Of a DNA stretch of 64,000 nt, positions 32,370 through 64,000 are shown piece after piece. The notes below the pieces were generated by a model. The model had not been told where the DNA came from. It saw only the letters and a list, made by a program, of their open reading frames with translations, and made no database searches. Position numbers and translations under genes: made by a program. The number at the start of each line of letters is the position of its first letter. Position 1 is the first letter of the stretch. The DNA comes from Octopus vulgaris. Lineage: Eukaryota. Location: contig OX597826.1 of NCBI GenBank assembly GCA_951406725.2, positions 11,780,001 through 11,844,000 on the forward strand. Reading direction: 5' to 3'.

Positions 32370-32493
32370 GTACATATAATATTCCTTTCTACTATAGGCA
32401 CAAGGCCTGAAATTTTTGGGGAAGGAGGCTAGTAGATTACATCGAACCCCAGTGTTCGACTCATACGACCTTATGCTTAGGGTATTGGGTTCG

Positions 32494-32905: not shown

Positions 32906-33519
32906 ATATAATATTCCTTTCTACTATAGGCACAAGGCCTGAAATTTTGGGGGAAGGAGGCTAGTAGATTACATCGAACCCCAGTGTTCGACTCATACGA
33001 CCGTATGCTTAGGGTATTGGGTTCACGAATATAAACTCGTAGGTTCGATTCCTGGACCGGTTGGCAAGTTGCCTCGAATAGCAATGTTATCAAATTTTCG
33101 GTTGTGGACTGAAAGAAGATTGGGCTTGAAGAAGTTTTCCCTCGTTGTCTCTAAAATTCATTACATTGTGTACAATGTTTTAATTCTTTAAAACTTTGTT
33201 CAACCTTTGCCTTTCATCTTTCCATGGTCAATAAATTAAACATCAATCTAGCAAATGGCAGCCTCGCTTACAACTGTTTCATTCATTACTGATCGACGTG
33301 AACCCGGTACACAATTGCGAACCATCTTACGATGTCAGATTGTTCTGTGATGACAAGATTATACTTCTATCGCAAAAACGTACCCTAGACATCACTCACA
33401 ATGCTCAGGTACCCAGAATGAATTGATTCTCGGTTGTACTTACACGTCCGTGCTGGGTGGCTGTGTTTTATGCGTATTGACGTACGTACTCGTCCCCATC
33501 AAGGGACCAGTGAACAGAT

Positions 33520-35891: not shown

Positions 35892-36799
35892 GTATGTATA
35901 TGTGTGTGTGTGTTTGTGTCTGTCCCCCCCTTGACAATCGGTGTTGGTCCGTTTACGTTCCCTGGCAAAAAGAGACTGATAGAATAAGTACTAAGCTAAA
36001 AGAAAGACAAATACTGGGGTCGATACATTCCACTAAAAGTTCTTCAAGTTGGTGCCCCAGCATGGCTGTAGTCAAACGAGTGAAACAGGCAAAAGATAAA
36101 AGATAAAACATGTTTCTAGAAAACATTATCTACGAGCTCGATCTGAAGTTCTTGTTTGTTATTCCTTTGCTCCTAGCGAGGTCTGCATGAGAAGAGCTAT
36201 GATCAACAGAACTCCAGCTATGACCATCACATCCTACTTTCAGGCATTGTGGGTAGAACTGCATTGTTCATGTTTTCGTTTAAAGACAGCAGTTTGAGCA
36301 GGCTCGACAAAAGCCAACTGATATCCCGGGCCTATATGAGCAACCTTTTCCGAGAAGCGGGCCGCATACAGACATGACTCATTATCAGATGGGCTGCATT
36401 AATAAAACAATTTCAAGAAAATTTTTCGTTTGTTGTGCCATTTAGAAAGTCTTGCGGGCTGCAGGTTGCTCATGGCTGACCTTACCCAGCAATGGTACTC
36501 CCTCGACCCTTCCATTGTCAAACTGATAAGGCATCAAGATTCTTCAAATACTGAATGTCAAATAATAGATTAAAAAATTCAGTTTTTTCTCCAGGCTAAA
36601 CTCAAGTATGTTACACAATCACTATAATAATAAAAGAGAAATTCTGTTTGTCCGTCTGAGCCCCCTTCATCTCAGTCTACATTTGCTCTACATAGATCCT
36701 TTTGGAATCAAGATGATCTCGCGATTGAAAATCTGCCCTTCATTTGGTTCTTGAACATCCAGCATTTGGATGTGATTTAAAAGCATTTGGGTTGCTGTT

Positions 36800-39700
36800 T
36801 CTTATTTCTTTACTGCCCAGAAGGGGCTAAACACAGAGGGGACAAACAAGGACACACAAAGGGATTAAATCGATTATATCGACCTCAGTGCATAACTAGT
36901 ACTTATTTAATCGACCCCGAAAGGATGAAAAGCAAAGTCGACCTCGGCGGAATTTTAACTCAGAACGTAACGGCAGACGAAATACCTATTTCTGTACTAC
37001 CCACAAGGGGCTAAACACAGAGAGGATAAACAAGGACAGACAAACGGATTAAGTCGATTAACTGGTACTTAATTTATCGACCCCGAAAGGATGAAAAGCA
37101 AAGTCGACCTCGGCGGAATTTTAACTCAGAACGTAACGGCGGACGAAATACCTATTTCTGTACTACCCACAAGGGGCTAAACACAGAGAGGATAAACAAG
37201 GACAGACAAACGGATTAAGTCGATTAACTGGTACTTAATTTATCGACCCCGAAAGGATGAAAGGCAAAGTCGACCTCGGCGGAATTTTAACTCAGAACGT
37301 AACGGCGGACGAAATACCTATTTCTGTACTACCCACAAGGGGCTAAACACAGAGAGGATAAACAAGGACAGACAAACGGATTAAGTCGATTAACTGGTAC
37401 TTAATTTATCGACCCCGAAAGGATGAAAAGCAAAGTCGACCTCGGCGGAATTTTAACTCAGAACGTAACGGCAGACGAAATACCTATTTCTGTACTACCC
37501 ACAAGGGGCTAAACACAGAGAGGATAAACAAGGACAGACAAACGGATTAAGTCGATTAACTGGTACTTAATTTATCGACCCCGAAAGGATGAAAGGCAAA
37601 GTCGACCTCGGCGGAATTTTAACTCAGAACGTAACGGCAGACGAAATACCTATTTCTGTACTACCCACAAGGGGCTAAACACAGAGAGGATAAACAAGGA
37701 CAGACAAACGGATTAAGTCGATTAACTGGTACTTAATTTATCGACCCCGAAAGGATGAAAAGCAAAGTCGACCTCGGCGGAATTTTAACTCAGAACGTAA
37801 CGGCAGACGAAATACCTATTTCTGTACTACCCACAAGGGCTAAACACAGAGAGGATAAACAAGGACAGACAAACGGATTAAGTCGATTAACTGGTACTTA
37901 ATTTATCGACCCCGAAAGGATGAAAAGCAAAGTCGACTTCGGCGGAATTTTAACTCAGAACGTAACGGCAGACGAAATACCTATTTCTGTACTACCCACA
38001 AGGGGCTAAACACAGAGAGGATAAACAAGGACAGACAAACGGATTAAGTCGATTAACTGGTACTTAATTTATCGACCCCGAAAGGATGAAAAGCAAAGTC
38101 GACCTCGGCGGAATTTTAACTCAGAACGTAACGGCAGACGAAATACCTATTTCTGTACTACCCACAAGGGGCTAAACACAGAGAGGATAAACAAGGACAG
38201 ACAAACGGATTAAGTCGATTAACTGGTACTTAATTTATCGACCCCGAAAGGATGAAAGGCAAAGTCGACCTCGGCGGAATTTTAACTCAGAACGTAACGG
38301 CAGACGAAATACCTATTTCTGTACTACCCACAAGGGGCTAAACACAGAAGGGACAAACAAGGACAGACAAACGGATTAAGTCGATTAACTGGTACTTAAT
38401 TTATCGACCCCGAAAGGATGAAAAGCAAAGTCGACCTCGGCGGAATTTTAACTCAGAACGTAACGGCAGACGAAATACCTATTTCTGTACTACCCACAAG
38501 GGGCTAAACACAGAGAGGATAAACAAGGACAGACAAACGGATTAAGTCGATTAACTGGTACTTAATTTATCGACCCCGAAAGGATGAAAAGCAAAGTCGA
38601 CCTCGGCGGAATTTTAACTCAGAACGTAACGGCGGACGAAATACCTATTTCTGTACTACCCACAAGGGGCTAAACACAGAGAGGATAAACAAGGACAGAC
38701 AAACGGATTAAGTCGATTAACTGGTACTTAATTTATCGACCCCGAAAGGATGAAAGGCAAAGTCGACCTCGGCGGAATTTTAACTCAGAACGTAACGGCA
38801 GACGAAATACCTATTTCTGTACTACCCACAAGGGGCTAAACACAGAGAGGATAAACAAGGACAGACAAACGGATTAAGTCGATTAACTGGTACTTAATTT
38901 ATCGACCCCGAAAGGATGAAAAGCAAAGTCGACCTCGGCGGAATTTTAACTCAGAACGTAACGGCAGACGAAATACCTATTTCTGTACTACCCACAAGGG
39001 GCTAAACACAGAGAGGATAAACAAGGACAGACAAACGGATTAAGTCGATTAACTGGTACTTAATTTATCGACCCGAAAGGATGAAAGGCAAAGTCGACCT
39101 CGGCGGAATTTTAACTCAGAACGTAACGGCAGACGAAATACCTATTTCTGTACTACCCACAAGGGGCTAAACACAGAAGGGACAAACAAGGACAGACAAA
39201 CGGATTAAGTCGATTAACTGGTACTTAATTTATCGACCCCGAAAGGATGAAAAGCAAAGTCGACCTCGGCGGAATTTTAACTCAGAACGTAACGGCAGAC
39301 GAAATACCTATTTCTGTACTACCCACAAGGGGCTAAACACAGAGAGGATAAACAAGGACAGACAAACGGATTAAGTCGATTAACTGGTACTTAATTTATC
39401 GACCCCGAAAGGATGAAAAGCAAAGTCGACCTCGGCGGAATTTTAACTCAGAACGTAACGGCAGACGAAATACCTATTTCTGTACTACCCACAAGGGGCT
39501 AAACACAGAGAGGATAAACAAGGACAGACAAACGGATTAAGTCGATTAACTGGTACTTAATTTATCGACCCCGAAAGGATGAAAGGCAAAGTCGACCTCG
39601 GCGGAATTTTAACTCAGAACGTAACGGCAGACGAAATACCTATTTCTGTACTACCCACAAGGGGCTAAACACAGAAGGGACAAACAAGGACAGACAAACG

Positions 39701-40378
39701 GATTAAGTCGATTAACTGGTACTTAATTTATCGACCCCGAAAGGATGAAAAGCAAAGTCGACCTCGGCGGAATTTTAACTCAGAACGTAACGGCAGACGA
39801 AATACCTATTTCTGTACTACCCACAAGGGGCTAAACACAGAAGGGACAAACAAGGACAGACAAACGGATTAAGTCGATTAACTGGTACTTAATTTATCGA
39901 CCCCGAAAGGATGAAAAGCAAAGTCGACCTCGGCGGAATTTTAACTCAGAACGTAACGGCAGACGAAATACCTATTTCTGTACTACCCACAAGGGGCTAA
40001 ACACAGAAGGGACAAACAAGGACAGACAAACGGATTAAGTCGATTACATCAACTCCAGTGCAGAACTGGTACTTAATTTATCGACCCCGAAAGGATGAAA
40101 AGCAAAGTCGACCTCGGCGGAATTTGAACTCAGAACGTAACGGCAGACGAAAAACCTATTTGTTTACTACCCACAAGGGGCTAAACACAGAGAGGACAGA
40201 CAAACGGATTAAGTCGATTATATCGACTCCAGTGCGTAACTGGTACTTAATTTATCGACCCCGAAAGGATGAAGGGCAAAGTCAGCTTCGGTGGAATTTG
40301 AACTCAGAACGTAGCGGCAGACGAAATACTGCTAAGCATTTTGCCCGGCGTGCTAACGGTTCTGCCAGCTCGTCACCT
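36800..40378 (-). repeat. Satellite-like tandem array of a 166-bp SINE-derived unit, about 20 copies
   Basis: actggtactt recurs at 37061, 37227, 37393, etc. The unit matches the dispersed SINE at 32494, 54772 and 62466. The tRNA-like head is at the 40378 end. Confidence 0.95.
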
Positions 40379-41565: not shown

Positions 41566-41576
41566 TTTATTTTATT
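41566..41576 (-). terminator. Candidate polyadenylation signals (two overlapping AATAAA) of the DSL-mucin gene
   Basis: tttatt at 41566 and 41571 on +, ~500 bp past the stop codon. Weak evidence in AT-rich DNA. Confidence 0.35.
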
Positions 41577-41751
41577 AATACAAACAGATTTACTGACATT
41601 TCTTTCGATGATGGTGATACAATTAACCTCAGCTCCGATGCTTATTTGTTGAGAATTTATTTCTTGTCTAGGTCTCCCTCGTTTATAGTAGCTTCTGCAT
41701 GTTTGACAATAAACTTCTCATTTGTGTGTGTGTGTGTGTGTGTCTGTGTGT

Positions 41752-42076: not shown

Positions 42077-45000
42077 CTATGTGACATATCGGTTCCAATA
42101 GTTTCGTAGATTTTTAGTGTAATAATCGTAATTATTCTTGAAATATTGTGCTGTATTTTGTACCTGCGTGATATAACTATTATAATAATTGCGGTATGAG
42201 TTATAATATTGACGGAAATTAGTTGCTGTTGTAGACTTTGCTTGATCAAACATTGAGGAAAATCTAAGTACCACTCTCGTGTAAGTTTTTCTAAGAAGCA
42301 ATTGGGACTTTTTGTAAGCTTTTTGCGCTCCTAACCAAGCATTGTTCCACAACCTACGTATGCCTTGTTTTCTGTTTGTTGCAGGTTGGTACAATCTATT
42401 TGTTATTTGATTTACTCCCCTCCACAAGTTAGAAAGCCTAGTCAAAGTTCTCTGAAATATGCGCTGGTTCTTTCGATAAATTTTCACGATAACATTCTTT
42501 CCGTAATGATAATAGGGTTTTGCCGTAGACACGACTTTGACGGTTATCGCGGGATTTCCAGGGTGTATAATCTTCTTATCCACATGTGTTTTGTTTTCGT
42601 ACTTGAAAGTGGTTAAGGAACTTTTTGTTGTAGTTAATCTGGTGGATGTGGTTGTTGGTAACTGCTTCGCTGGTCGACATACCTTAAGTTTTAATGTTTC
42701 CAGTTGCTTATGGCCAACAGAACCGGAATTTGGATTTGGTTGCTGCGCAGCGGCTTTCCCAACAGTCGCAGGTTTTATAACCAATACAATACACGTGGAT
42801 TTAAACTGGTGAACACTTAACCAATTAAAATTGAAAAACAGTCTTAATCTTCGTTGTACCCAATTAACAATCATCTTCGTGATGAAGAATGTATACTTGT
42901 GCTTGGGTGGAATTATTGCAGTCATAGACTTCGACAACCAAGATATGGAAGAAGCAATATCTGTCGCCACTAACTTTTTAGATGACTGATCTGGAAATTT
43001 GAACATTGATAATTTGTTTACTATCCAGCACAATCGTTTTGATAACTTCTGAGGATTTCTAATTTTATTGGCATTTGCAACCGTTTTCGGAATTTTAATT
43101 CTGACAGAAATACAAACTTTGATGGATGGTTTCATAGTCGTTTTTATTTTGCTGGGTCGAGTTGAAATTGTCGAAGATGGGAGAGTTGTTAGCATCTTTG
43201 TTGTCGCTGTTGTAATTTCTTTTTCAGGAAGTTTTGTTGTTTCATTGGAAATACTGTAGGACAATGATGTGGCCCTTGTTCTGTCAGAAGCAATGGGACC
43301 TATTTTTGCTGTGGCATTTTGAATTGAAATCGTTGCTGCACTGGAGATATATTGGTTAGCCAAAGTCACGCTAGGCGTCGTATCGTGAATAGCGAATTGG
43401 GTTGTGCGGAAATCAGAATCAGCTTCTATAGTTTTCGGTCTGTAAGTTGTAATATTAATAATCTCCGACATTAGTGTTGTGGTAATATGATCTGAACTAT
43501 ATGTAGTAGCATTGGTATTACTGATTATTGATTCAGTTAAGTTATAAATATTGCTCTTATCAATAAACTCTGCAGTCCTGGAGACTTCATCGGTTATATT
43601 TGCTTTAGAACTGGATGAAGCACTACTTTCGGTTGTATAGCTTAATTTATCAGTCGTGTACTCTCTAGAGAAATCTGTGATATTCTCTGATTTCGACGGG
43701 CCTTTTTCTGTTGTTGTATTGAATTGATCGATGAAATCTTCAGTAAATAGAAAATGATCTGTCGGCTGCCTCGGTGATGAATATGACATTGTTGCTTCTG
43801 GTGTTTGGGAAGATATATCTGTTCGGTTAATCTCAGTCGATGTAGTTATATCTTCAGATACATAATAATCTGAAACGTTTGCGACAGTAGACAGAGTTGA
43901 TGAAGTGATATCTGATTCTACTGGTGCAACGCTGCTTATATTGGTTGTTAAATGATCAGATGTTGAAATTTTGTAACCGAACACTAATGTTACATTTTCT
44001 GTTTCTGTTTCATTGATTCCGAATGAGGTCTTCTCCATTAATTTGGTTACATCGCCTTCTGTTCCAAGACGAGTGTGTTGTATAGTCTGTGATGTTGAGT
44101 CTGATCTTACCGTTTCACCTGTTGTTACACTGTCAGTACTATCTTTAATTGGTGTAAATGATATTGTAGTATTTGCCGGTATATGTGTAGAGTATTCGTC
44201 TTGTGTTATATTAGTTGTAAGAAAGAGAGAGGTTGTTGTTGGTTGAACAGACGATACATTGGTATCTGTTTCGTTTTCTCCAACAATAGTAACACTGCTG
44301 GTTACAGTTTCTGTAATATTGTCAAGGTAAGGTACGAACCGACTTACCTCTAATGATGATTGAGTCGATATGTTTGTTGATTCCGTTGTAAATAAAACTT
44401 CGGTTTTAAGTTCTTTTCCTTCCTCTGTTGACATTTTACTTGTATTGTAGTCAGTTGCACTGTATCCAGTGTAATTGCTCACGCTACTTACAGATTGTGT
44501 TTCCAATAGTTTAGTGAAATCTGTGCTGGTTTCTTGAGATGTCTGAATTGTAACGTTTTCAACCCAACTGTCTGGCGTTTCAATACGAGTGCTCGTTGGT
44601 TCTGTAGCAGGATATATAGTTTTCCCCTCCTGAATCGAAGAAAAAGTTTTTGAAGACTGTGTAATGGCTGGAACGGAACTGGTATCACGAGACGATTCAG
44701 ATGGTAATGAGATTGCTTCGACTGTTTTCGTATCAGTATAGAATATTTCGTCGTCTTTGCTTATTGTGCTGGTCTGTAATGTAGTAGAACTTTCAACGGT
44801 TTGGTTTAATTTATCAGTCGTGTACTCTCTAGAGAAATCTGTGATATTCTCTGATTTCGACGGGCCTTTTTCTGTTGTTGTATTGAATTGATCGATGAAA
44901 TCTTCAGTAAATAGAAAACGATCTGTCGGCTGTTTCGGTGATGAATGTGACATTGTTGTTTCTGATGTTTGGGAAGATATATCTGTTCGGTTAATCTCAG

Positions 45001-48000
45001 TCGATGTAGTTATATCTTCAGATACATAATAACCTGAAACTTTTGCGACAGTAGACAGAATTGATGAAGTGATATCTGATTCTACTGGTGCAACGCTGCT
45101 TATATTGGTTGTTAAATGATCAGATGTCGAAATTTTGTAACCGAACACTAATGTTACATTCTCTATTTCTGTTTCATTGATTCCGAATGAAGTCTTCTCC
45201 ATTAATTTGGTCGCATTGTCTTCTGTTTCATGACTAGTCTGTCGTGTTACACTATCAGTAAAATCTTTAATAGGAGTGAATGACACCGTGCCATTCGGAG
45301 CTGTATGTGTAGAGTATTCTTCCTTTGTTTCAGCAGTTTCAGGAAAGAGAGAAGATGTGGATGTTGATTGAGTTGGTGACACACTAAAATATGTTTCATT
45401 TACTCCTGTAGTAATTACGCTACTGGTCATAGTTTCTTCGCCACCTTCTTTGCTTGATGTCTTACCCTGAAAAGCCGATGTAACATTATCAGGGTAAGAT
45501 ACGAACCGAGTTAGCTCAGATGACGATTTAATCGAGGTGTTTGCTACATCTATAGTAAATAAAACTTCGGTTTTAAGTTCTTTTCCTTCCTCTGTTGACA
45601 TTTTACTCGTGTCGTAGTCTGTTGCACTGTATCCAGTGTAATTGCTCACGCTACTTACAGATTGTGTTTCCAATATTTTAGTGAAATCTGTGCTGGTTTC
45701 TTGTGATGTCTGAATTGTAACGTTTTCAACCCAACTGTCTGGTGTTTCAATACGAGTGCTCGTTGGTTCTGTAGCAGGATATATAGTTTTCCCCTCCTGA
45801 ATCGAAGAAAAAGTTTTTGAAGACTGTGTAATGGCTGGAACGGAACTGGTATTACGAGACGATTCAGATGGTAATGAGATTGCTTCGACTGTTTTCGTAT
45901 CAGTATAGAATATTTCGTCGTCTTTGCTTATTGTGCTGGTCTGTAATGTAGTAGAACTTTCAACGGTTTGGTTTAATTTATCCGTGGTGTACTCTCTAGA
46001 GAAATCTGTGATATTCTCTGATTTCGACGGGCCTTTTTCTGTTGTTGTATTGAACTGATCGATGAAATCTTCAGTAAATAGAAAACGATCTGTCGGCTGC
46101 CTCGGTGATGAATGTGACATTGTTGTTTCTGATGTTTGGGAAGATATATCTGTTCGGTTAATCTCAGTCGATGTAGTTATATCTTCAGATACATGGTAAT
46201 CTGAAACTTTTGCGTCAGTAGACAGAGTTGATGAAGTGATATCTGATTCTACTGGTGCAACGCTGCTAATATTGGTTGCTAAATGATCAGATGTCGAAAT
46301 TTTGTAACCGAACACTAATGTTACATTCTCTATTTCTGTTTCATTGATTCCGTATGAAGTCTTCTCCATTAATTTGGTCGCATTGTCTTCTGTTTCATGA
46401 CTAGTCTGTCGTGTTACACTATCAGTAAAATCTTTAATAGGAGTGAATGACACCGTGCCATTCGGAGCTGTATGTGTAGAGTATTCTTCCTTTGTTTCAG
46501 CAGTTTCAGGAAAGAGAGAAGATGTGGATGTTGATTGAGTTGGTGACACACTAAAATATGTTTCATTTACTCCTGTAGTAATTACGCTACTGGTCATAGT
46601 TTCTTCGCCACCTTCTTTGCTTGATGTTTTACCCTGAAAAGCCGATGTAACATTATCAGGGTAAGATACGAACCGAGTTAGCTCAGATGACGATTTAATC
46701 GAGGTGTTTGCTACATCTATAGTAAATAAAACTTCGGTTTTAAGTTCTTTTCCTTCCTCTGTTGACATTTTACTCGTGTCGTAGTCTGTTGCACTGTATC
46801 CAGTGTAATTGCTCACGCTACTTACAGATTGTGTTTCCAATATTTTAGTGAAATCTGTGCTGGTTTCTTGTGATGTCTGAATTGTAACGTTTTCAACCCA
46901 ACTGTCTGGCGTTTCAATACGAGTGCTCGTTGGTTCTGTAGCAGGATATATAGTTTTCCCCTCCTGAATCGAAGAAAAAGTTTTTGAAGATTGCGGAATG
47001 GCTGGAACGGAACTGGTATCACGAGACGATTCAGATGGTAATGAGATTGCTTCGACTGTTTTCGTATCAGTATAGAATATTTCGTCGTCTTTGCTTATTG
47101 TCCTGGTCTGTAATGTAGTAGAACTTTCAACGGTTTGGTTTAATTTATCAGTCGTGTACTCTCTAGAGAAATCTGTGATATTCTCTGATTTCGACGGGCC
47201 TTTTTCTGTTGTTGTATTGAATTGATCGATGAAATCTTCAGTAAATAGAAAACGATCTGTCGGCTGTTTCGGTGATGAATGTGACATTGTTGTTTCTGAT
47301 GTTTGGGAAGATATATCTGTTCGGTTAATCTCAGTCGATGTAGTTATATCTTCAGATACATAATAATCTGAAACGTTTGCGACAGTAGACAGAGTTGATG
47401 AAGTGATATCTGATTCTACTGGTGCAACACTGCTTATATTGGTTGTTAAATGATCAGATGTTGAAATTTTGTAACCGAACACTAATGTTACATTTTCTGT
47501 TTCTGTTTCATTGATTCCGAATGAGGTCTTCTCCATTAATTTGGTTACATCGCCTTCTGTTCCAAGACGAGTGTGTTGTATAGTCTGTGATGTTGAGTCT
47601 GATCTTACCGTTTCACCTGTTGTTACACTGTCAGTACTATCTTTAATTTGTGTGAATGATATTGTAGTATTTGCCGGTATATCTGTAGAGTATTCTTCTT
47701 GTGTTATACTAGTTGTGATAAAGAGAGATGTTGTCGTTGGTTGAACAGACGACACATTGAAATCTGTTTCGTTTTCCCTAGCAGTAATAGTTTTGTCTAA
47801 AACACGGGTTGTAGATATATTTGTTCTGCTAATTTCAGTCAATTCAGTAACTTCCTCAGATACATAATGGTCTGGAAGTCTTGTGTCTGTAGCCTTAGAT
47901 GGGATGGTTGTGTCAGAGGTTGTATCTGCGTGAAATTCTTTTGTGACTGGTGGAGACTTTGATGTCTTCGCGGCTGTAACATTTAATTTTACTTTCAGTG

Positions 48001-48186
48001 TAGAATCTGACGTGAATGTACTTGCTTCAGAAAGATGTCGAGATGTTGTCGTAGCTGTTGTGACATGTGATACGCTTTTCTGAGAGTCTTCATCGTGAGA
48101 GACACTTGTCGACTTCGTCTGATATGTGCTCGCTGTTTGGATAAGTCTTGCGGTGGTTTTATATAGCAATATGTCACAAGTTGTTC
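42077..48186 (-). CDS. 6.1-kb terminal exon: last EGF Cys (GTTCD), Ser/Thr-rich mucin-like repeat region, basic C-terminal region
   Basis: Uninterrupted ~2036-codon frame. A strong polypyrimidine acceptor (ttctttttgttaatag|GA) in phase 1 supplies the sixth Cys of the preceding EGF. Confidence 0.88.
43640..47780 (-). repeat. Coding tandem repeat, period 1167/1167/1164 bp (~389 aa), about 3.5 units
   Basis: The marker ttgattccg (GINET on the - strand) recurs at 44013, 45177, 46344 and 47511. Confidence 0.92.
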
Positions 48187-48323
48187 CTATTAACAAAAAG
48201 AAGAAAAAAAAAGATATAAACGCATGTTTATTATCATAGACATAAAGCTTTAGACAAATATATTTGAAAATATTGATGAAGAAAATTAACCTAAAAATGT
48301 GATGCTTGGGAGATTGAGATCTT

Positions 48324-48539
48324 CGAGGGGTTCTGAAAAGTTACTGGCTTTGGGTAAAAGAAAATACAGGAGGATCAGTTGATTATGATTTTATTCAACA
48401 TAGTCCCCCTCTCAGATTCACACACTTATTGCAGCAGTTCTTCAGTTTTCTAACTCCTGTAAGAGATCTCGGAAGGTTAGGCCTCCAACCAGGCCTTTCG
48501 CAAAATCCTTAAAGCCAGGAAGTTTTCAGCACCCTCTCG
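48324..48539. mobile_element. mariner-type MITE (second, inverted copy at 56022-56241)
   Basis: TIRs cgagggg..ctgaaaagtt.ctggcttt / aaagccaggaa.ttttcagcaccc..cg|ta; two homologous copies in the window. Confidence 0.75.
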
Positions 48540-48575
48540 TAGTAGCTCAATCCTTCATCACTGGTTCCCTTAGAC

Positions 48576-48925
48576 CAGGGTTTCTCAACGATTTTTAAAA
48601 TCTGTGAACCCCTTTGATTACTATTTTATTCTGATGGACCATGCAACCATTCGATGATTATAAATTAGTTTTATGGAAACTTCCTCTATAATTCCTATTT
48701 TGTATTTCACCCATTCACTTGTATTTGTCGAATAATGTAAAATGTTAGAGAAAGAAACCTGGCTGTTTCTTGCAATATACATCAATACATACATCTAAAG
48801 CAAAATATTTTTAGGGACCATTAAAATACTATTGTAGGCCCCCAATTTACTATTTTGTTGCGCGGATCCCCAAGAATCTTATGTGGACCCTCAGAAGCCA
48901 TATGGACCCCGGATAAGAACCAATG
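48576..48925. mobile_element. hAT/Charlie-like MITE
   Basis: cagggtttctcaac ... ataagaaccaatg termini; degenerate 8-bp TSD ccttagac/atttagac. Confidence 0.6.
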
Positions 48926-49927
48926 ATTTAGACGATACACTTAAATGAATTAAAGTCGATTGTTCAGTGGAGAGTTTACAACTGTGATGGTGGACAAGAG
49001 CCTACTAAGTGACAATGTAATTGAGTGGTAACCTCACATGGTCAACTAATAATCAGTGTAACAGAGCCATTGAAGGTTTAAACGGTGAGAAGTATTGTTG
49101 CTATTTTTTCAGTCTCAGACAATCTGTTTAGATTTCTGGAATGTCTTTTATCAAGAGGTTGCTCGATCAGAGCTGACATGGAGCTGAACTACTATAATTA
49201 TCTTTCCCCCCTGTTTAAGCCTTATCAGTTCAGACTCTCTGTTAAGTAGTTAAGCTAATTGTGGCCCTGATAAATTGTTTCCTTGTCGTTCCTGAATCAT
49301 TAATGTTACCCATTAGGTTATTTGGCCCTTTCTGGAATCTTTCTGTATTTACTCTATCTCATAGAAATACCATGTTCACCTTCATGTGTAACTCAATGTT
49401 CTAGCTTGAAAGTATTTGTGTAAGGGGTTTAGTTCCAGATTAACACAGATCAAGCACATCTCTAACCAAAGGCATTCCACCCGTGACCTTTTCATTTTTG
49501 GGGACATAGCTTATTTTCGATTGCATCAGCTAATTTCTCCTTCATTGCTTTAAAAATCAGAAATGGGTATTAGTTTAAGATATATTTTGTTGCAGTTTTT
49601 GAAAGTCGAGTAATCATATAGCAGTTCTCTTTTTTTTGCTCAGAGCGTTTAAGTGGTAACTGCTGCGGAGTTCAAACATATCTGTAAACAACTATCGGCT
49701 AAACAAGAAATTATTTGTGTTTACCAATGTTTAGACAGTACAGGAAAAGGAAGCTTTCGGTAGAATTACAATAACCTCACGGAATATGAGAATTACAATG
49801 TGCTTACAGTTTCTGCAACTGCAGACACAAGCAATCTTAAAAAACAAAAACAATGAAAAAACATGCGAAACAACTTAATGAACTATAACAGAAACAGCAT
49901 TTGCAACAAAAAAAAGATGATAAAAAT

Positions 49928-49978
<51 letters not shown>

Positions 49979-50056
49979 ACACACAGTAGTAGCAACATTA
50001 ATAACCGCATTAGCTTCGAACAGTGCACTGGCATGCACAGCAACAATAACAAGTAT

Positions 50057-50449
50057 TTTTTTTGGAAGCACTCCGTCGGTTACGACGACGAGGGTTCCGG
50101 TTGATCCGAATCAACGGAACAGCCTGCTCGTGAAATTAACGTGCAAGTGGCTGAGCACTCCACAGACACGTGTACCCTTAGCGTAGTTCTCGGGGATATT
50201 CAGCGTGACACAGAGAGTGACAAGCCCGGCCCTTTGAAATACAGGTACAACAGAAACAGGAAGTAAGAGTGAGAGAAAGTTGTGGTGAAAGAGTACAGCA
50301 GGGATCACCACCATCCCCTGCCGGAGCCTCGTGGAGCTTTTAGGTGTTTTCGCTCAATAAACACTCACAACGCCCGGTCTGGGAATCGAAACCGCGATCC
50401 TATGACCGCGAGTCCGCTGCCCTAACCACTGGGCCATTGCGCCTCCACT
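50057..50449 (-). mobile_element. tRNA-derived SINE family C, full-length and young, with 12-bp TSD aataacaagtat
   Basis: Head gtggaggcgcaatggcccagtggttagggc...ggtttcgattcc, short poly-A tail, TSD at 50045-50056 and 50450-50461. A homologue lies at ~61070-61433. Confidence 0.9.
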
Positions 50450-51311
50450 AATAACAAGTATAGAATAGAGACAGCCGTCCTGTGCAGATCGAGTTTTTCT
50501 TGCCCGCATCCCTCAGAATATAAAACCCCAGGAACAGAATAAAGATTAACGAGAGTCTAACATGTCTAATCTGTTACACTAACTCACATAAAATTAACCA
50601 CGGAATGTCAGAATGGCCAATATGCTTCCCTTCTAAACTGAGGTATATTCAGACGTTTCGTGAACAGTCTATAAGAAATGCATAAACTAAGTCAGAACTA
50701 ATCTGGTGCTACAAAGCAATAACAGGCATAGAACAATAATAGATAAGAGCTCTAGATGAAATGGGATTGTGTTAGTTAAGCATATTTGCTGGAGGCAAAA
50801 ATGCAGTGCTGGGGACATAGTGTGAACCTACCAGCGTGCGTTTGGTGACAGGATATGGACTTCTGAGCATGCTTTATGATCGAACATCAGCCACTGCCGA
50901 GCGTGTGTTTTGTGCTAGGATTTGAACCTTCCAATGTGCGATTGGTGATTATGACATTAAGCGCCGAACATATTTGTAGGTTGGCCAGCCATTTACCAAC
51001 TCGATCCAATACTTATCTATTTAAATATAAAACAGGAAGAGAAAGAAAAAGGAAAAGAAATAAAAGCCTGAAATAGCATATCTCTCTCTTGATACATATG
51101 TACCATACGTACGTACATACATACATACATACATACATACATACATACATACATACATACATACATACATACATACATACATACATACATACATACATAC
51201 ATACATACATACATGTACTAGACCGAAATCCTTTGCACAGTGTAGAGAATATACCTCCAACATTGCCCAAGCGACCTTAGCACCAAGTCTGCAATTCAGT
51301 TTACATGTGAA

Positions 51312-51645
51312 GTCGCATAGCTCAGTGGTAAAAGCGTCGGGCTCACAATCATGAGTTAGTGAGTTCGATTCCCGGACCGGGTAGTGTATTGTGTTCTTGA
51401 GTAAGACACTTTATTTCATGTTGCTCCAGTTCACTCAGCTATAGAAATAAGTTGCGACATCGCTGGCGCCAAGCTGTATCGAATTTTGCCTTTCTCTTGG
51501 ATAACATAGGTAGCGTGGAGAGGAGAGGCTTGTATGCACAGGCGACTGCTGGTCTTCGATAAACAACCAGACTTGTGCCTCAGAGGGAAACTTTCTAGGC
51601 GCAATCTCATGGTCAGTCACGACCGCAGCGAGTGTTTACCGTTTA
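51312..51645 (+). mobile_element. tRNA-derived CORE-like SINE family D (also 59110-59380 on -)
   Basis: tagctcagtggt A box, gagttcgattcc B box, body gtgttcttgag.aagacactttatttca. Confidence 0.75.
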
Positions 51646-52095
51646 CAATTCATCCAAGGTTGGGTCCTTGTGTCATACACCTCTTACAAAAAATCAGGCA
51701 CACAATACATAACCATAGTGCAATACAATTTCTTTCTCTCGACGGGCCTGCTCTCTTTTTTTATATTATCGCAAAACAAATCAAAGAAAAAAAATATCCT
51801 ATAACCTTCAAACGATATCCGAACAAGTTTCTTCAAGGGACACAACTCAGTGGACAATAATTACTGAATAGGATGAAATACCACAGATCTTGACTTAAGC
51901 ATGATTTAAAAGATTATATATCACATGAGACCATTAAGTTAGACATGGCCTGGACTAATTTTGACCGAAGCATATCTAAGTAATGAAAAGATAAATATTT
52001 TATTCAGGACGGTCCAATGGGCTCTTACTCTGAGTTTTTACTGTGTTCCACGACTTCTTGTCTAGCCAAGCCAGCTTTCTCCCATACATACATAT

Positions 52096-52170
<75 letters not shown>

Positions 52171-52587
52171 TGTATATAGCCATATATATATATACATTCA
52201 CGTGGTAATTTTGGAGGGAGATACGAATTCGCCTGTCTATATAAATGTGGAGATGCTAGCGGACCGTTATATGGTTCGATGTCGCCTGGTCGAGCTGGTG
52301 TAATGGGTGAGTTTTTTTCCTAGCATTTCTAGATTTATAGGAAATATTATATTGACAAGGAAATGAACTTTCGGTTCTAATCCAGAAACGGATTCATCTA
52401 TAATTAATCCAATAGGCTGGGATTTCATTGTCTTCTTTCTCTTTACCATATACGGGTTACAAATTCTGTTTGTTTGTGGAGACTTTTTTACTAGTAGTAG
52501 AAATAGTGATCTATTTGGCTGCTATTTCTAATATTTTCGGTATGTGGTTTTGAGCAACTTGTTGCAATTAACCCTTTATTATAAATA

Positions 52588-52649
<62 letters not shown>

Positions 52650-52785
52650 TGTCACAATGAGGATATTTAGACCTATCATAGGGATATTTTTATCCAAGAT
52701 ACACTGGTTTCCTATATTATACTTTGAAGAGATATTTCTTCAATGAATATATTATGTAAAATACTATAAAATATCAAATATTATA

Positions 52786-53244
52786 ATTAAGTTTGAAAAC
52801 GGAGAGATCTAATGGATATAAACTGATTCATTAATTAATTAACATCTTCACCTACAATTGTTTCATTTCACAAGCAAAATTAAAACTACAAAACATATAT
52901 AAATGTATAATCTTGCATTTTATAATACCTTGGATGGAAAATCATCAGGGTGTACAAAGGACAATACAAGGGTTATATTATAATCGTTTGGAATACTCAG
53001 AATATATAATCATGTTTATTTGAGTCTGTATTTCGGGTATTCAACGCATCATAATGTAACCCTTCTATTGTCCTTTATGTACCCTGATGATTTTCTACCC
53101 AAGGTATTTTAAAATGCAAGATTTTATATTTATATGTTTTGTAGTTTTAATTTTGTTTGAGAAATGAAACAATTGTAGTTGAAGATGTTAATTAATTAAT
53201 AAATTGATTCATATCTATTGGATCTCTCCGTTTTCAAACTTAAT
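52786..53244. repeat. ~460-bp imperfect palindrome with a hammerhead-like motif in each arm
   Basis: Arms aagtttgaaaacggagagatc... / ...gatctctccgttttcaaactt. Confidence 0.9.
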
Positions 53245-53574
53245 AAAAAATTAGAGAAAGGATGAGGAAAAAACGAAAGGGGAGGAGAGATAAAAAGAAT
53301 TAGAGAGAACAAAAGAGTAAACGAAAGAGTGATAGAATAATAGAATAATAGAAGAGAAATCTGTGTGGTATCTGTGTTTGTCCCTCCCATCCCCACTTGA
53401 CAGCCGGTGTGGGTGTGTTTACGTGCACGTAACTTAACGGTTCAGCAATAGAGACCGAGAGAATAAGTACTAGGCTTTAAAAAATAAGCACTGGGGTGGC
53501 TTCATTCGACTAAAAATTCAAGGCGGAGCCCCAGCATGGCTGCAATCTAATGACTGAAACAGATAAAAGATAAA

Positions 53575-53642
<68 letters not shown>

Positions 53643-54052
53643 TTTGATACTTTGATAGGTTTCGGCCATTATTGGCCCAGGCCATGTCTAACTTAATAGC
53701 ACCACGATATATAAATATCGTGTACATTAAAACACATTAAGAGGCTTCCAAATAGGAAACCCTTGTGCTAGAAAGAGCAGTAGAAAACTCGAACCACTAA
53801 TTAGGTATAAATTCTCGAAAGGAATGATTCTTTCGAGTATATATGTATATATATATATGTATGTAAACGCACACATACATATATATATATATATATAAAT
53901 GTATGTATGTATGTATACATACATACATATATGAAAATATATGTATACATACATACATACATATATTTATATATATGTATTTGTGTATGCATGGTTATAT
54001 ATATAAATGTATATATATATATTTATATACACACATATATATATATACACGT

Positions 54053-54093
<41 letters not shown>

Positions 54094-54178
54094 AGTGTAT
54101 ACATACATACATATATATAAATGTATGTATACATACATATATATGTATCTGTGTATGCATGGTTATGTATATATATAT

Positions 54179-54241
<63 letters not shown>

Positions 54242-55395
54242 TATATACATACATACACGGATACGGATACACAGAAAACCACAGGAGCACATATAACTCA
54301 AATGAACTCAGATGATAATAATAAAATACCTTAACGTGAAAGCAATAAGAAAACTATCAGCTTTCCAATGTTATCTCATTGGAAAAAAGTAAAAGAAAAA
54401 AAAATTATAAAACCACCAACATCCAACTGTTACAATAGCATCAATAATAAGAACAAAACCAATCCGTCTGACTTCTAATATTAGTTCTCTTGGAACGGGT
54501 ACAAATGGTCTATATTTTTAGGATATGGCAAGTGGACAGCAGTAATGCCCGTGTTGTTTTAATAGCATTAACAGCTGTCGTAACTGAAAGGAAACTAGCT
54601 ACAAACGAACAGTGAAATCGGAAGCAGGTAGCCAGAAGTATATTTTTTTGATTTGGTATTATATATGGGATTGTGATACGTACGCATACCATGTGCAAAC
54701 GTACGTATATAAACGTACATACACGCGTGCACGCACAAACACACATGCAACAATTGATATGCTTATATGTGGTGGCGAGCTGGCAGAAACGTTAGCACGC
54801 TGGGCGAAATGCGTAGCCGTATTTCGTCTGCCGTTACGTTCTGAGTTCAAATTCCGCCGAGGTCGACTTTGCCTTTCATCCTTTCGGGGTCGATAAATTA
54901 AGTACCGGTAACGCACTGGGGTCGATGTAATCGACTTAATTCGTTTGTCTGTCCTTGTTTGTCCCCTCTGTGTATAGCCCCTTGTGGGTAAAAAAGAAAC
55001 ATATATGTGGTGTGTGTATGTGTGTGTTTGTGTGTGTGTGTTACTGAGTGTTAGATTTCATTCGTCATCCGATTTAACACCCCCATATGGTCCACGTGTA
55101 TGTTTAGCGGAGATCATTCCGGCCAGGATAACGTACTCTCTTCGTTCACGCAGTCTCGGAGGTGTGTTGGCTAAAATATATTCGTGTATCGTCACATTTA
55201 ACACATTCGGTTGTATTAGGGCGTGATAAGCCCTTTCGCTGCGGAAATAGTTGTGAGATATCAGTGCATGGGTGAAACTGTTGCCGTTAATATTCTGTAT
55301 AAACTATTCGTAGTCAACATCTTCAGGGCAAGAGAAGAACAGAGTAGAACGTTGTGAGTGTTCTCTAAGGACGCGTCTCACGTTGCTGGGTAGCG

Positions 55396-55435
<40 letters not shown>

Positions 55436-55901
55436 AGAGAGAGAGAAAGAGAGAGTCAAACCATTTCTTGGGTAGAACGGGGAAAAACGAAGTTGTCCTC
55501 TGCTGTAAAGTATAATCAGAAGATATTTATTGTAAGGTACTACTCCGAAATTGTGATGGTACTGGCAGAATCGTTAGCACGCTGGACGGAATGTTTAGCG
55601 GTATTTCGTCTGCCGCTACGTTCTGAGTTCAAATTCCGCCGAGATCGACTTTGCCTTTCATCCTTTCGGGGTCGATTAAATAAGTACCAGTTACGCACTG
55701 GGGTCGATATAACCAACTTAATGCGTTTGTCCCCTCTGTGTTTAGCCCCTTGTGGGTAGTAAAGAAATAGGTAATGGGTCGACGATTAATGTGTTTGTGT
55801 TTATTTCTTTCTTTCGCTCTTCTTGAAGAATATTTTTGTTATCTCTCACTGCGACAATTCCATTACATATATATGTGCATGAATGTATAGCATATAAGTG
55901 A

Positions 55902-55978
<77 letters not shown>

Positions 55979-56240
55979 GTGTGTGTGTGTGTGTGCGTTT
56001 GTGTACGTATTTATGTATATACGAAGGGGTGATGAAAACTTTCTAACTTTAAGGGTATCGCGAAAGGACTGATTATAGGCCCAACCTTCCCAGTTCTTTT
56101 ACAGCGCTTAGAAAATCAGAAGGACCGCTGCAATAAGTGTGTGAATCCGAGGAAGCGGAATATGTTGAATAAAATCATAATTAATTGATTCTTCTGTATT
56201 TTCTTTTACTCAAAGCCAGGAACTTTTCAGCACCTACCAC

Positions 56241-56305
<65 letters not shown>

Positions 56306-56510
56306 TATATAGGGAGAGTTTACGAAAAAAAAAAAGACGAAGACAAGTGGTGTAGAAAACAAACAGATGTATTAGTATAACGCTCAGGAATTGGAAAAGT
56401 CTTTTACGTTTCGAGCCTACGCTCTTCTACAGAAAGGAACACAGAAAGAAACAAGGAGAGAAAAACAATGTGTGTAGTGGCTACCGATCATATATATATA
56501 TATTTATATA

Positions 56511-56562
<52 letters not shown>

Positions 56563-56574
56563 AACATGCACACA

Positions 56575-56619
<45 letters not shown>

Positions 56620-56684
56620 GTAACGACTATTTGCTTTTTGCAGCGTTAATTATAGAAATTTGCTTTCGTCTTTGCATGAGTTAC

Positions 56685-56807
56685 CTGTTCGTTCTGGTGG
56701 ACATAAACATGTATAATAATTAACACCATCTATGCAGGTAGCAGAACTGTGACATCTACTGCTCGAGCAATCATCTTGATTCACGTGACAATTCTCTCCT
56801 GTCCAAC
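56685..56807 (-). CDS. End of DSL + calcium-binding-type EGF repeat exon (GWTGENCHVNQDDCSSSRCHSSATCIDGVNYYTCLCPPERTG)
   Basis: Polypyrimidine tract + tag|, |gtaac, phase 1-1. Completes the DSL (GWxGxxC). EGF Cys spacing with the C-x-D-x4-Y-x-C-x-C hydroxylation consensus. Confidence 0.9.
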
Positions 56808-57575
56808 CTAGATAGAAAGAGAAAGAAGAAAAAAAACAAAACAGAAAGCGGAGAGACAAAAAGAAGAAGAAAAAAGAAGCAAACCGAAAAATATCTACAA
56901 GAAAAAGTTAAGAGTTCGAATATATACTCTTTACTCTTTTACTCTTTTACTTGTTTCAGTCATTTGACTGTGGCCATGCTGGAGCACCGCCTTTAGTCGA
57001 GCAAATCGACCCCGGGACTTATTCTTTGTAAGCCTAGTACTTATTCTATCTGTCTCTTTTGCCGAACCGCTAAGTGACGGGGACGTAAACACACCAGCAT
57101 CGGTTGTCAAGCAATGATAGGGGTACAAACACAGACACACATACACATACATATACATATATATACGACAGGCTTCTTTCAGTTTCCGTCTACCAAATCC
57201 ACTCACAAGGCATTGGTCGGCCCGGGGCTATAGCAGAAGACACTTGCCCAAGATGCCCACGCAGTGGGACTGAACCCGGAACCATGTGGTTGGTTAGCAA
57301 GCTACTTACCACACAGCCACTCCTGCGCCTATATGATACAGTTAACAATGTGAAATAATTTAAAATTCGTATCACGAGACAACTAATGATACTTCGGTTT
57401 CTTTGCGTTTTTCTTTTTTGTTATTGTCTTATGTTGGTGTTATTTTCGTAAAATTTTACGTCTGAACATTTTATGATGTAGGGCATTCGAAACCATTAAA
57501 AAATGCTCACACATAACGAATGATTTTTACACATGCATTTATATATGTATGTAGGTATTTCTGTGTATTTGCAGG

Positions 57576-57631
<56 letters not shown>

Positions 57632-57871
57632 CATACATAGATGTATGTATTTGCGTGTATTCTTGCGTGTGTGTGTGTGTGTGAGAGAGTGAGTGCATTT
57701 GAACATTTGACTATTGAAGAAAAGCGTGATAATCAGTGATATGTAGGTTATTCATCGTTTCTATGCGTTTCGTGAGTGTCGCTAAAACGTGACAATAAAA
57801 CTTGCAAAAACAAAAAAGAAAAGATTCAGAGAATAACCTCCTTACTATAATAAGTATATATACATACATAC

Positions 57872-57978
<107 letters not shown>

Positions 57979-58292
57979 CGTGTGGAGGCGCAAGCAATAT
58001 CCCAGTGGTTAGGGCAGCGGACTCACGGTCGTAGGATCGCGGTTTCGATTCCCAGACCGGGCGTTGTGAGTGTTTATTGAGCGAAAACACCATAAGCTCC
58101 AAGAGGCTCCGGCAGGGGGTGGTGGCGATCCCTGCTGTACTCTTTCGTCACAACTTTCTCTCACTCTTCTGTTGGCCTGCTCGCTTAGCCAGTGGGGTGG
58201 CGTCATTTGGAGGCTAAAACAATGCGAAGCGCATTGTGACCAGCGATGTGTAGCAACATCTGATAGCCTGGTCGGTCACGGGGATCACGGTG

Positions 58293-58324
<32 letters not shown>

Positions 58325-58549
58325 GGGGCGTAAGAGTGGCCGTGTGGTAAGTTGCTTGCTTACGAACCACATGGTTCCGGGTTCAGTGTCTTCTACTATA
58401 GCCCCGGGCCAACCAAAGCCTTATGAGTAGACTTGGTAGGCGGAAACTGAAAGAAACCTGTCATATATATGTATGTATGTGTGTGCGTGCGTAAAAGAGT
58501 AAAATTGTATATATACGTGCGCATACAAACACAAACACACGCACATGCA

Positions 58550-58620
<71 letters not shown>

Positions 58621-58667
58621 ATATATATATATATATAATTTTTCTAAATTTAATTATTTAATCGTTA

Positions 58668-58705
58668 CAGTTGAAAAGGTCTCAAAACGACCGAAACCGG
58701 TACTG
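58668..58705 (+). ncRNA. Minimal hammerhead motif, U3-A8 core variant
   Basis: cag-TTGAAAA-ggtc(tcaaaac)gacc-GAAA-ccgg-TA-ctg. Confidence 0.65.
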
Positions 58706-58796
58706 AAAGATTCACTATAAAATTATTTTAGCATTTTCTATTTTTGACTTGTTTTTTCATATATATCAACTCGTGTGTTCCTTTCCACCCTTATAC

Positions 58797-58873
<77 letters not shown>

Positions 58874-59982
58874 CATGTGCGCGCACATACCTATGGAATA
58901 TAAAAAGAAAAACAATCAGAGCAAAGTACTAACTATAAGGGAAGAAACAATTGTTTAAAAGATATACTCCGATTCTGTATCATAAGATGCAGCCCGACGA
59001 ACTAGCCAACTTTTTTCGACACTAAACTGGCCAAATTGATGTTAGTCTTGCCAGATGCACCCAAGCACCAGTTGGTGTCGGTAAATCAAGAGATGATTTT
59101 TCACCTCTTTTACAAGTCCGGGCAAGGCTGTTTATGGAAGGCCAGCAGACACCCATGTATACCGGCCTCCCTTCTCCACACCACTGATGTTATCCGAGGG
59201 AAAGGCCGATACGGCTTGGCACCAGTGACGTCGCAACTCATTTCTACAGCTGAGTGAACTGGAGCAACGTGAAATAAAGTGTCTTGCTCAAGAACCCAAC
59301 ACGCAGCCCGCACCGGGATTCGAACTCACAACCTCACGATCGTAAGCTCGACGCTCTGACCACTGAGCCATGCGCCTTCACGGTACGACAAACAGGCATC
59401 AGTAAAATAGGTGCTGGGATCGATGCAATGAAGTATATCGCTGATGGCAGTGTTCCAGCATGGTCGCAGTTCAGCGAATGAAGCCAGCAAATGACTAAGA
59501 AAACGTAGGAGACAAAATTTGTTTTCATATGCATTACTAACCATTATAGGCACTAAATCTGAAAGAGAACGCATTGTTCTGCGGCTTTGTGTGGCGATGG
59601 GCTTTCGTGGCTTTCAGTTTTTCGTTCGACTGCTTATGAGTTATTGTATAATCGATATATTTATATGTATTACTGTAGAGTATACAAAATGCAGCACAAA
59701 AACTTTCGCTTTTAGTAAATTCGGTAGCTCCTTGAAAATATAACATAACTTGCTAAAGACAGAACATTTCTTTCTATTTTGCTTATCAATCAATCATGTA
59801 TAAAAAAATTCGGACTTCGTAACTTATGATTTACAAGAGAAGAATTCTCATGCATTCAACCAAGCAATCAAACAGTATAAAAACAGGGGCGGTTTTTTTT
59901 TTTTTTTGAATAGATGTATATTTTAGACGGGTGGGGATAATGATGGTGGTTGTGCACAGAAACTGTGTATAATATTATTTAC

Positions 59983-60119
59983 CAGTATAGCATTTTTTGC
60001 GGCCGGTATTTTTGTCACATTTATAATGGCCCTTCTCAGAATTTGTCGGAATACAATATGTTTTACAAGTGCTCCCATAATAGTTCTGATTGCAATACAT
60101 CTTTAGCTGAAGAAACATA
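59983..60119 (-). CDS. DSL (Delta/Serrate/LAG-2) domain exon (MFLQLKMYCNQNYYGSTCKTYCIPTNSEKGHYKCDKNTGRKKCYTG)
   Basis: ttttgcag| acceptor, |gtaaat donor. Pattern C-x3-YYG-x2-C-x3-C-x-P...GHY-x-C...G-x3-C-x2-G is diagnostic of the DSL domain. Confidence 0.88.

Positions 60120-61929: not shown

Positions 61930-64000
<2,071 letters not shown>

Follow-up and report, generated by a model that had tools for sequence, protein, structure and literature searches.

A Delta-like gene of Octopus vulgaris that lacks a transmembrane segment and carries a long Ser/Thr-rich stalk and two unnamed C-terminal modules

Canonical Delta ligands of the Notch pathway are defined by a signal peptide, an MNNL/C2 domain, a DSL domain, no fewer than nine EGF repeats of which the first two are of the DOS type, a transmembrane (TM) segment and an intracellular domain (PMC5356439). 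Activation of Notch is thought to require endocytosis of the ligand (PMC3415683). Proteins without the TM segment are also described: the mollusc Delta duplicate Delta2 has MNNL, DSL and EGF and has lost the TM segment (PMC8166818), and Caenorhabditis elegans DSL-1 is a secreted protein with DSL and one EGF (PMC3415683, PMC2504490). The gene described here lies on the minus strand of a 64,000-nucleotide stretch of the Octopus vulgaris genome (assembly GCA_951406725.2, contig OX597826.1, positions 11,780,001 to 11,844,000), called the window and numbered from its first letter. It is a TM-less Delta derivative with two unnamed modules. The gene is real, spliced and conserved, and is already present in databases under misleading names. 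The reading preferred here, to which a probability of roughly 45% is given, is that the product is a secreted Delta derivative in which a C-terminal helix on a lipid surface replaces the membrane anchor, and that the head acts as a decoy or adhesive and not as a Notch activator.

Three coding exons of the gene were found in the window:

59983..60119, minus strand: DSL exon, encoding the last C2 strand and most of the DSL domain.
56685..56807, minus strand: EGF exon, encoding the end of the DSL domain and five of the six Cys of a single full-length EGF.
42077..48186, minus strand: giant coding exon, the last one, with 6,110 nt up to the stop codon, encoding the sixth EGF Cys, the stalk, domain A and domain B.

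The exons have canonical ag/gt ends and compatible phases. The giant exon is an open frame of 2,035 codons, and the joined exons encode 2,122 amino acids with a single terminal stop, compared with 167 and 103 stops in the other two frames. This model is an exact C-terminal suffix of the annotated O. vulgaris protein CAI9731589.1 (2,208 aa, 'mucin-5AC-like'). The DSL exon matches Pfam DSL (PF01414) with 37.8 bits (cut-off 24.2, E 2.3e-9) and the EGF exon matches Pfam EGF (PF00008) with 22.9 bits (cut-off 21.5); the giant exon supplies the sixth EGF Cys with its third full codon. The EGF presumably carries the calcium-binding and O-fucose consensus motifs, as judged by eye. A single three-exon gene with DSL and one EGF, tied together by this Cys and lacking the DOS pair, had been proposed in a preliminary description of the locus, and splice sites, phases and Pfam matches bear it out: the one full-length EGF is spliced directly to the stalk. 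No further EGF or DSL exon was found anywhere in the 64-kb window.

Splicing was checked with the EGF exon and its flanks in contigs from four of 24 listed sequencing runs (X1, X2, X3 and X6). It is a guess that the runs are RNA; none of the 24 is on record as such, and the contigs nonetheless join exons over introns of 3.2 and 8.5 kb. Part of the giant exon occurs in 20 of the 24, a count not taken as evidence. One 1,010-nt contig of X1 covers all three exons (aligned part 56684-56808). The X1 and X3 contigs halt at the edges of the EGF exon, with a loose end identical to window 59984-60013, the end of the DSL exon. The other loose end, found in X1 only, equals window 48156-48185, the start of the giant exon. 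The two junctions proposed beforehand were thus recovered, 59983>56807 in two of the four runs and 56685>48186 in one. The lack of contigs from X2 and X6 does not prove absence. The X3 contig reaches approximately 337 nt upstream of the DSL exon, by computation about 80 nt beyond the annotated start. At window 56737 the X1 contig has a G>A difference (plus strand) within the EGF exon, apparently in a third position, which may reflect an allele or a species difference.

The hydropathy analysis (Kyte-Doolittle, 19-residue windows, KD19) gave a maximum of 1.06 in the full model, and no TM-like segment was found past the N-terminus in any of the 16 family proteins scanned (KD19 at most 1.5). The absence of a membrane helix noted in the preliminary description therefore extends to the relatives. 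Four proteins with a true start (P0007, P0028, P0009 and P0027), from two lineages, have a hydrophobic N-terminus (KD19 1.6-2.2) and a full C2-DSL-EGF head. One of these, P0009 (cluster of 16), is encoded by a single signal-to-stop frame without a TM segment on a 4,901-nt Logan contig. As to secretion, the earlier claim is supported for these four relatives in so far as their N-termini resemble signal peptides; for the octopus gene itself no such sequence is seen. A 'mucin-5AC-like' peptide from octopus ink was considered as a product of the gene and rejected: the peptide is a TM-like segment, and the octopus protein has none. A short signal-peptide-like frame at window 36161-36229 (minus strand) ends in a stop, without an obvious splice donor, and is probably due to chance.

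An explanation to be weighed against these data is that the gene chiefly makes a conventional TM ligand by way of downstream exons, the TM-less form being a minor isoform or an annotation product, or that the protein is intracellular and has no signal peptide. The gene models probably lack part of the 5' end, the 3' junction of the EGF exon is covered by one contig, and a plain listing gives 16 hydrophobic frames downstream on the minus strand. However, no additional EGF or DSL exon was found in the window, the terminal exon and its stop are conserved in four octopods and in a Sepia cluster, and P0009 runs from signal to stop without a TM segment. The probability of this explanation is considered close to negligible. 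Three observations that would have told against the architecture were not made: no skipping of the giant exon was seen (one contig tests that junction), no TM-like segment was found and no already described family was encountered.

The 86 annotated upstream residues of CAI9731589.1 lie outside the window (best tblastn match within it E 1.0), in agreement with the earlier statement that the N-terminus was beyond the identifiable sequence. They correspond to the second half of the C2 domain of the paralogue (38.5 bits against a C2 profile of the paralogues, where 500 shuffles reached at most 10.4), and only this C-terminal half of C2/MNNL is seen for the octopus gene. The paralogue P0007 matches Pfam MNNL (PF07657) at E 4e-17. 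The N-terminus of the O. bimaculoides model XP_014785705.1 is most likely an annotation error and was rejected as real, with a match to a retroelement-like remnant (window 62320-62075) and a score of -1.4 bits against C2. The corresponding retroelement-like open frame (window 62072-62476, minus strand), putatively of a LINE endonuclease, lies within the intron that precedes the DSL exon and has no Pfam match at cut-off; in O. bimaculoides the counterpart serves, probably in error, as first exon of XP_014785705.1.

Judged by identity, the DSL-EGF head is the best-conserved region of the protein (95% to O. bimaculoides and 73% to Argonauta). For the same two species a stalk unit reaches 71% and 39%, and the tail domains 83% and 57-59%. 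Because conservation is highest here, the head is not a decaying relic. The DSL Cys pattern and the GHY motif are retained. The Notch-binding face of Jagged1 is formed by F199, R201, R203, D205 and F207 (PMC3415683), which align to Y, I, T, S and K, with none of the five identical; P0009 retains two of the five. The suggestion that the head binds Notch at long range is weakened by this replacement. In P0005 (Argonauta GAB1601705.1) some five residues of the DSL domain are missing, the G-H of GHY among them, which again indicates drift away from canonical ligands.

A soluble, long-range activating ligand comparable to DSL-1, with matrix or lipid anchoring giving the resistance needed for pulling on Notch, would agree with the conserved head, with its DSL-1-like makeup of DSL and one EGF without DOS (PMC3415683, PMC2504490) and with the presence of C2, which as a part of Notch ligands binds phospholipid and contributes to activation (PMC3888931). 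It is at odds with the replaced residues, which in Jagged1/Serrate are required for both cis and trans interactions, and with the lack of an intracellular domain, and is judged highly improbable.

The giant exon encodes the following regions after the EGF:

43133..48175, minus strand: Ser/Thr-rich, acidic, Pro-poor and Cys-free stalk of about 1,685 aa, predicted to be heavily O- and N-glycosylated.
43642..47789, minus strand: tandem array inside the stalk, about 3.5 units of 1,164-1,167 nt (388-389 aa), found by self-BLAST.
42668..43132, minus strand: domain A, an unnamed module of about 155 aa with four Cys and a predicted compact alpha/beta fold.
42080..42613, minus strand: domain B, with an N-x-T sequon and predicted short strands followed by a helix.
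42080-42520, minus strand: the predicted domain B helix, about 147 aa, cationic, aromatic and amphipathic, the last approximately 99 aa having a 3.65-residue period.

The stalk repeat, the C2 half and the two tail modules are additions to the preliminary description, whose stalk of about 1700 aa is confirmed at 1,685 aa. The stalk contains 36% Ser and Thr, 14% Asp and Glu, 3.6% Pro, no Cys and 64 N-glycosylation sequons. The repeat units are 84-98% identical in DNA, units 1 and 2 sharing 98.5% and unit 3 showing 84-85%. An anchor motif of the unit occurs four times in O. vulgaris and O. sinensis and twice in O. bimaculoides and Argonauta. That the repeat is an assembly artefact was rejected, as units are also found in other species; the 98.5% identical pair could be miscounted.

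The tail comprises 350 aa with a net charge of +56. Its length and basic character had been described correctly, but it consists of two conserved modules and not merely of basic sequence. Domain A is predicted by AlphaFold2 with pLDDT 75.6 and pTM 0.71, and is 83% identical to the O. bimaculoides, 57% to the Argonauta and 32% to the Sepia-cluster sequence. Foldseek gave no match for domain A alone, and structural alignment against 48,161 chains gave a best Z of 4.5 (rmsd 5.1, 83 aligned), a result that speaks for neither a new fold nor a known one. The Pfam SEA family has no match in the gene, and the fold searches with domain A were without a clear match either way. Domain A is probably present in the paralogues, as judged from sequence profiles: the long- and short-stalk versions match weakly (hhalign E 0.0027, probability 11%), and the best match of the HMM falls on the corresponding region in nine of nine proteins, but exceeds all 200 shuffles in only five of them. 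It was not found in three of four gastropod-type proteins, the fourth, P0029, having a trace of 29 residues. The gastropod-type, mucin-like P0029 (1522) and P0031 (552) share a short helix motif, W-L-x-D-x-x-S, within the stalk; its likeness to the long helix that comes first in domain A is statistically marginal. In the model P0004 (O. sinensis XP_036364437.1) domain A lacks its first 47 aa, and some of the sequence in front of it is missing too, possibly an assembly or annotation gap.

Domain B begins with an N-x-T sequon in eight of nine aligned rows, which fits an extracellular tail. The mean hydrophobic moment of its helix is 0.37-0.46, against approximately 0.21 after shuffling, and none of 300 shuffles reaches the observed value in any of the nine sequences. 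The net charge of the helix is +14 to +27 across the family. In the last 100 aa or so the spectral peak is at 98.1-99.0 degrees in all nine, corresponding to a period of 3.64-3.67, near an 11-residue repeat; the moment is 0.36-0.45 at 98.2 degrees and 0.05-0.14 at the heptad angle of 102.9. A heptad coiled coil is rejected by this periodicity. On an 11-mer wheel, drawn for seven of the nine rows with two gapped rows excluded, four adjacent sectors hold 52-81% bulky hydrophobes, rich in Phe, Trp and Tyr, and at most 2% charge. Lys and Arg flank these sectors and Asp and Glu are on the far side.

An 11-residue periodicity also fits hendecad coiled coils, and secreted proteins with stalks often have an oligomerisation domain at the C-terminus. 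The helix may accordingly form a coiled coil of this type, giving a multivalent, bouquet-like oligomer of matrix or mucus with domain A as a further assembly module and no role for lipid. The aromatic face, continuous over about 100 residues with the period given above, and the conservation of the aromatic positions across the family would suit such a structure. The high positive charge with few acidic residues would cause repulsion in a homo-oligomer, though, and the basic residues stand beside the hydrophobic face, as they do in lipid-binding helices. The coiled coil is a real, if unlikely, possibility. Amphipathic 11-mer helices of perilipins and alpha-synuclein bind lipid (PMC4807253, PMC3135411), and this likeness points to the lipid surface of the preferred reading.

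The best PDB sequence match of domain B had E 0.11, and Foldseek gave no match to the whole tail at E<=0.001. Among many unrelated weak Pfam rows, lipid-protein families matched domain B with E 0.32 at best for ApoO (four of nine sequences) and E 0.025 for Apo-CII (one of nine). A VIA-align match of the whole tail to phasin 5ip0_A (Z 10.4, rmsd 5.1, 103 aligned) was not counted; it ties with unrelated long helices. Recognition in the ESM Atlas was low for both domains, with hypothetical or unrelated clusters, and was not used.

The gene is annotated in four octopod genomes, with models of the same layout in O. sinensis, O. bimaculoides and Argonauta hians. A search with the tail among 1.84 billion representatives gave nine matches at E<=0.001, and a domain B profile search of 5,522 candidates gave eight, three of them new. 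Among the matches are a cluster of Sepia pharaonis, a paralogue present in three octopods, proteins from ENA and Logan, and gastropod sequences of Batillaria and Gigantopelta. On this sequence evidence the predicted helical module of domain B defines a wider mollusc family. The paralogue, LOC115218507, is represented by XP_029644226.1, CAI9731592.1 and GAB1601704.1. Full-length paralogues have a hydrophobic N-terminus followed by C2/MNNL, DSL, several EGFs, a short Ser/Thr linker, probable domain A, a linker, domain B and a stop. Equal-sized contigs in three octopods, and adjacent or near-adjacent accessions in two, suggest that the paralogue and the gene form a tandem pair. In the domain B tree (13 rows, midpoint root for drawing only) the Sepia-cluster protein and the four long-stalk octopod proteins form one group (95/99); the multi-EGF paralogues (93/99) and the gastropods stand apart from it. 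This grouping suggests that the duplication is older than the split between octopods and cuttlefish. One gastropod-type protein has three EGFs within the stalk.

The composition of the relatives also bears on a structural role. The protein might be a mucin, glue or coat component without a role in Notch signalling, the tail binding polyanions such as its own acidic stalk, sulfated glycans or microbial surfaces, and the head being co-opted for assembly or for another partner. This would agree with the loss of all five Notch-contact residues, with a stalk length ranging from 131 to 1,685 aa across the family, and with the Ser/Thr-rich gastropod proteins with domain B, none of the four of which shows a DSL in its available, probably partial, model. 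It is opposed by the head being the most conserved part of the protein, by the full C2-DSL-multi-EGF ligand layout retained in the paralogues and by the two contact residues kept in P0009, and is regarded as distinctly unlikely.

In the preferred reading, that of a secreted and lipid-anchored Delta derivative, a signal peptide would direct secretion; it is inferred to lie upstream, outside the window, as in the paralogues. Glycosylation would extend the stalk into a long spacer, and the cationic aromatic helix would bind anionic membranes, vesicles or lipid particles in mucus or matrix. The head may still bind an extracellular partner, possibly Notch weakly. Because it has no intracellular tail it cannot supply the endocytic pull, and it would block, buffer or tether instead of activating.

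Several points weigh against this reading. The 3' partner of the EGF exon is tested by a single contig, and rare isoforms are lost from contigs. In O. vulgaris and O. sinensis the models show no signal peptide and begin at a Met that lies inside C2 in the paralogues; this makes 5' truncation of the models probable. The pLDDT of the predicted domain B helix is only 53-74, a low to moderate confidence. Lipid binding is read from the sequence pattern alone, with which a hendecad coiled coil would also be compatible, and the replaced Notch face would also fit a partner unrelated to Notch. Finally, the soluble, DOS-less, one-EGF DSL-1 helps activate Notch (PMC2504490, PMC3415683), so that a missing TM segment is compatible with activation.

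A wider scenario would be that a secreted family derived from Notch ligands arose in coleoid cephalopods when a Delta head was fused with a mucin-like mollusc module of older origin, the apolipoprotein-like helix of that module taking the place of the TM anchor. Carried by vesicles, lipid particles or membranes at the tip of a stalk of tunable length (131 to 1,685 aa), the head would modulate Notch beyond cell-cell contact. This is speculative and rather unlikely. Notch ligands are normally tied by a TM segment to the signalling cell, where endocytosis drives activation, and the family described here keeps a strongly conserved head without such a segment. Domain B, conserved and unnamed, is common to the gastropod mucin-like proteins, and if it binds lipid it would represent a different way of anchoring or transporting a Notch-type ligand. 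In the cephalopod lineage Notch controls retinal neurogenesis (PMC10970066). Even without a Notch partner, the analysis defines two unnamed mollusc domains and a gene family that now goes under 'mucin-5AC-like' or 'notch homolog 2', and makes them accessible to test.

Two candidate AATAAA polyadenylation signals follow the stop codon:

41571..41661, minus strand: the two signals, about 415 and 500 nt past the stop, from a motif scan only in AT-rich DNA.

Rfam gave no matches. At window 36893-40329, 1.7 kb past the stop, are 20.6 copies of a 166-bp unit (96% matches). The element is also dispersed at 62470-62884 and 32493-32906, and the array therefore has the look of a satellite that expanded from such a dispersed repeat. 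Window 30392-30842 contains 6.7 copies of a 67-bp unit, which yield long open frames on the plus strand. A weak, below-cut-off match to a DDE transposase (PF13843, E 0.0016) at window 12216-12560 (minus strand) is probably a transposon remnant.

Compared with canonical Delta, Serrate and Jagged proteins (Jagged2 5MW5, Jagged1 4CBZ, Delta 7ALK), the octopus gene has the same order of C2/MNNL, DSL and EGF and keeps the DSL Cys pattern and GHY. It differs in having one full-length EGF, no DOS, TM or intracellular domain, a replaced Notch face, and a giant stalk with two extra domains. Set against the definition in PMC5356439, half of MNNL/C2 and the DSL are present, while the EGF number, DOS type, TM segment and intracellular domain are not; the gene would fall in the unstudied 'DSL-like' class of that paper. 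The TM-less Delta2 (PMC8166818) shows that ligands without TM and DOS are not confined to nematodes, from which they are best known according to the preliminary description. Delta2 is shorter than Delta1 through early termination, whereas the octopus protein exceeds 2,200 aa and has conserved C-terminal domains (PMC8166818). The O. bimaculoides Delta accessions in that paper, XP_014769856.1 and XP_014771450.1, differ from XP_014785705.1, and the octopus gene does not match Delta2 as described there. The searchable literature, outside which most subscription papers lie, holds no description of the DSL-mucin architecture, although the 138 DSL genes of PMC8166818 may include this gene; no mention of six accessions of the family was found there. 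DSL-1 and the octopus gene have in common DSL with one EGF and no DOS or TM, but no stalk or C-terminal modules are described for DSL-1, it helps activate Notch, and nothing suggests orthology (PMC3415683, PMC2504490).

MUC5AC and the octopus gene have in common a long Ser/Thr-rich tandem-repeat region. Gel-forming mucins such as MUC5AC contain VWD-C8-TIL assemblies, CysD and a cystine knot. No Pfam match to VWD, CysD or cystine-knot domains was found in P0002-P0005; because of this, and of the Cys-free stalk with 3.6% Pro and 64 N-sequons, the label 'mucin-5AC-like' reflects composition only. In the broad sense of long Ser/Thr-rich tandem repeats the protein is mucin-like (36% Ser and Thr, 389-aa repeats), if Pro-poor and with glycosylation predicted; the TM segment that follows the stalk in transmembrane mucins is absent. 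The 11-mer helices of perilipins, alpha-synuclein and exchangeable apolipoproteins resemble domain B in the 3.64-3.67 period, the continuous apolar face and the basic interface (PMC4807253, PMC3135411). Domain B has no homology to them at Pfam cut-offs, is far more aromatic and cationic and is part of a Notch-ligand-like protein, and the likeness is a functional analogy only. A further comparison is with the LOC115218507 paralogue and P0008, P0009 and P0010, which have C2-DSL-EGF without DOS, a Ser/Thr linker, probable domain A, domain B and no TM segment. They differ from the octopus gene in having 4-8 Pfam EGF stretches (full-length rows), a short stalk of 131-172 aa and a visible signal-peptide-like N-terminus.

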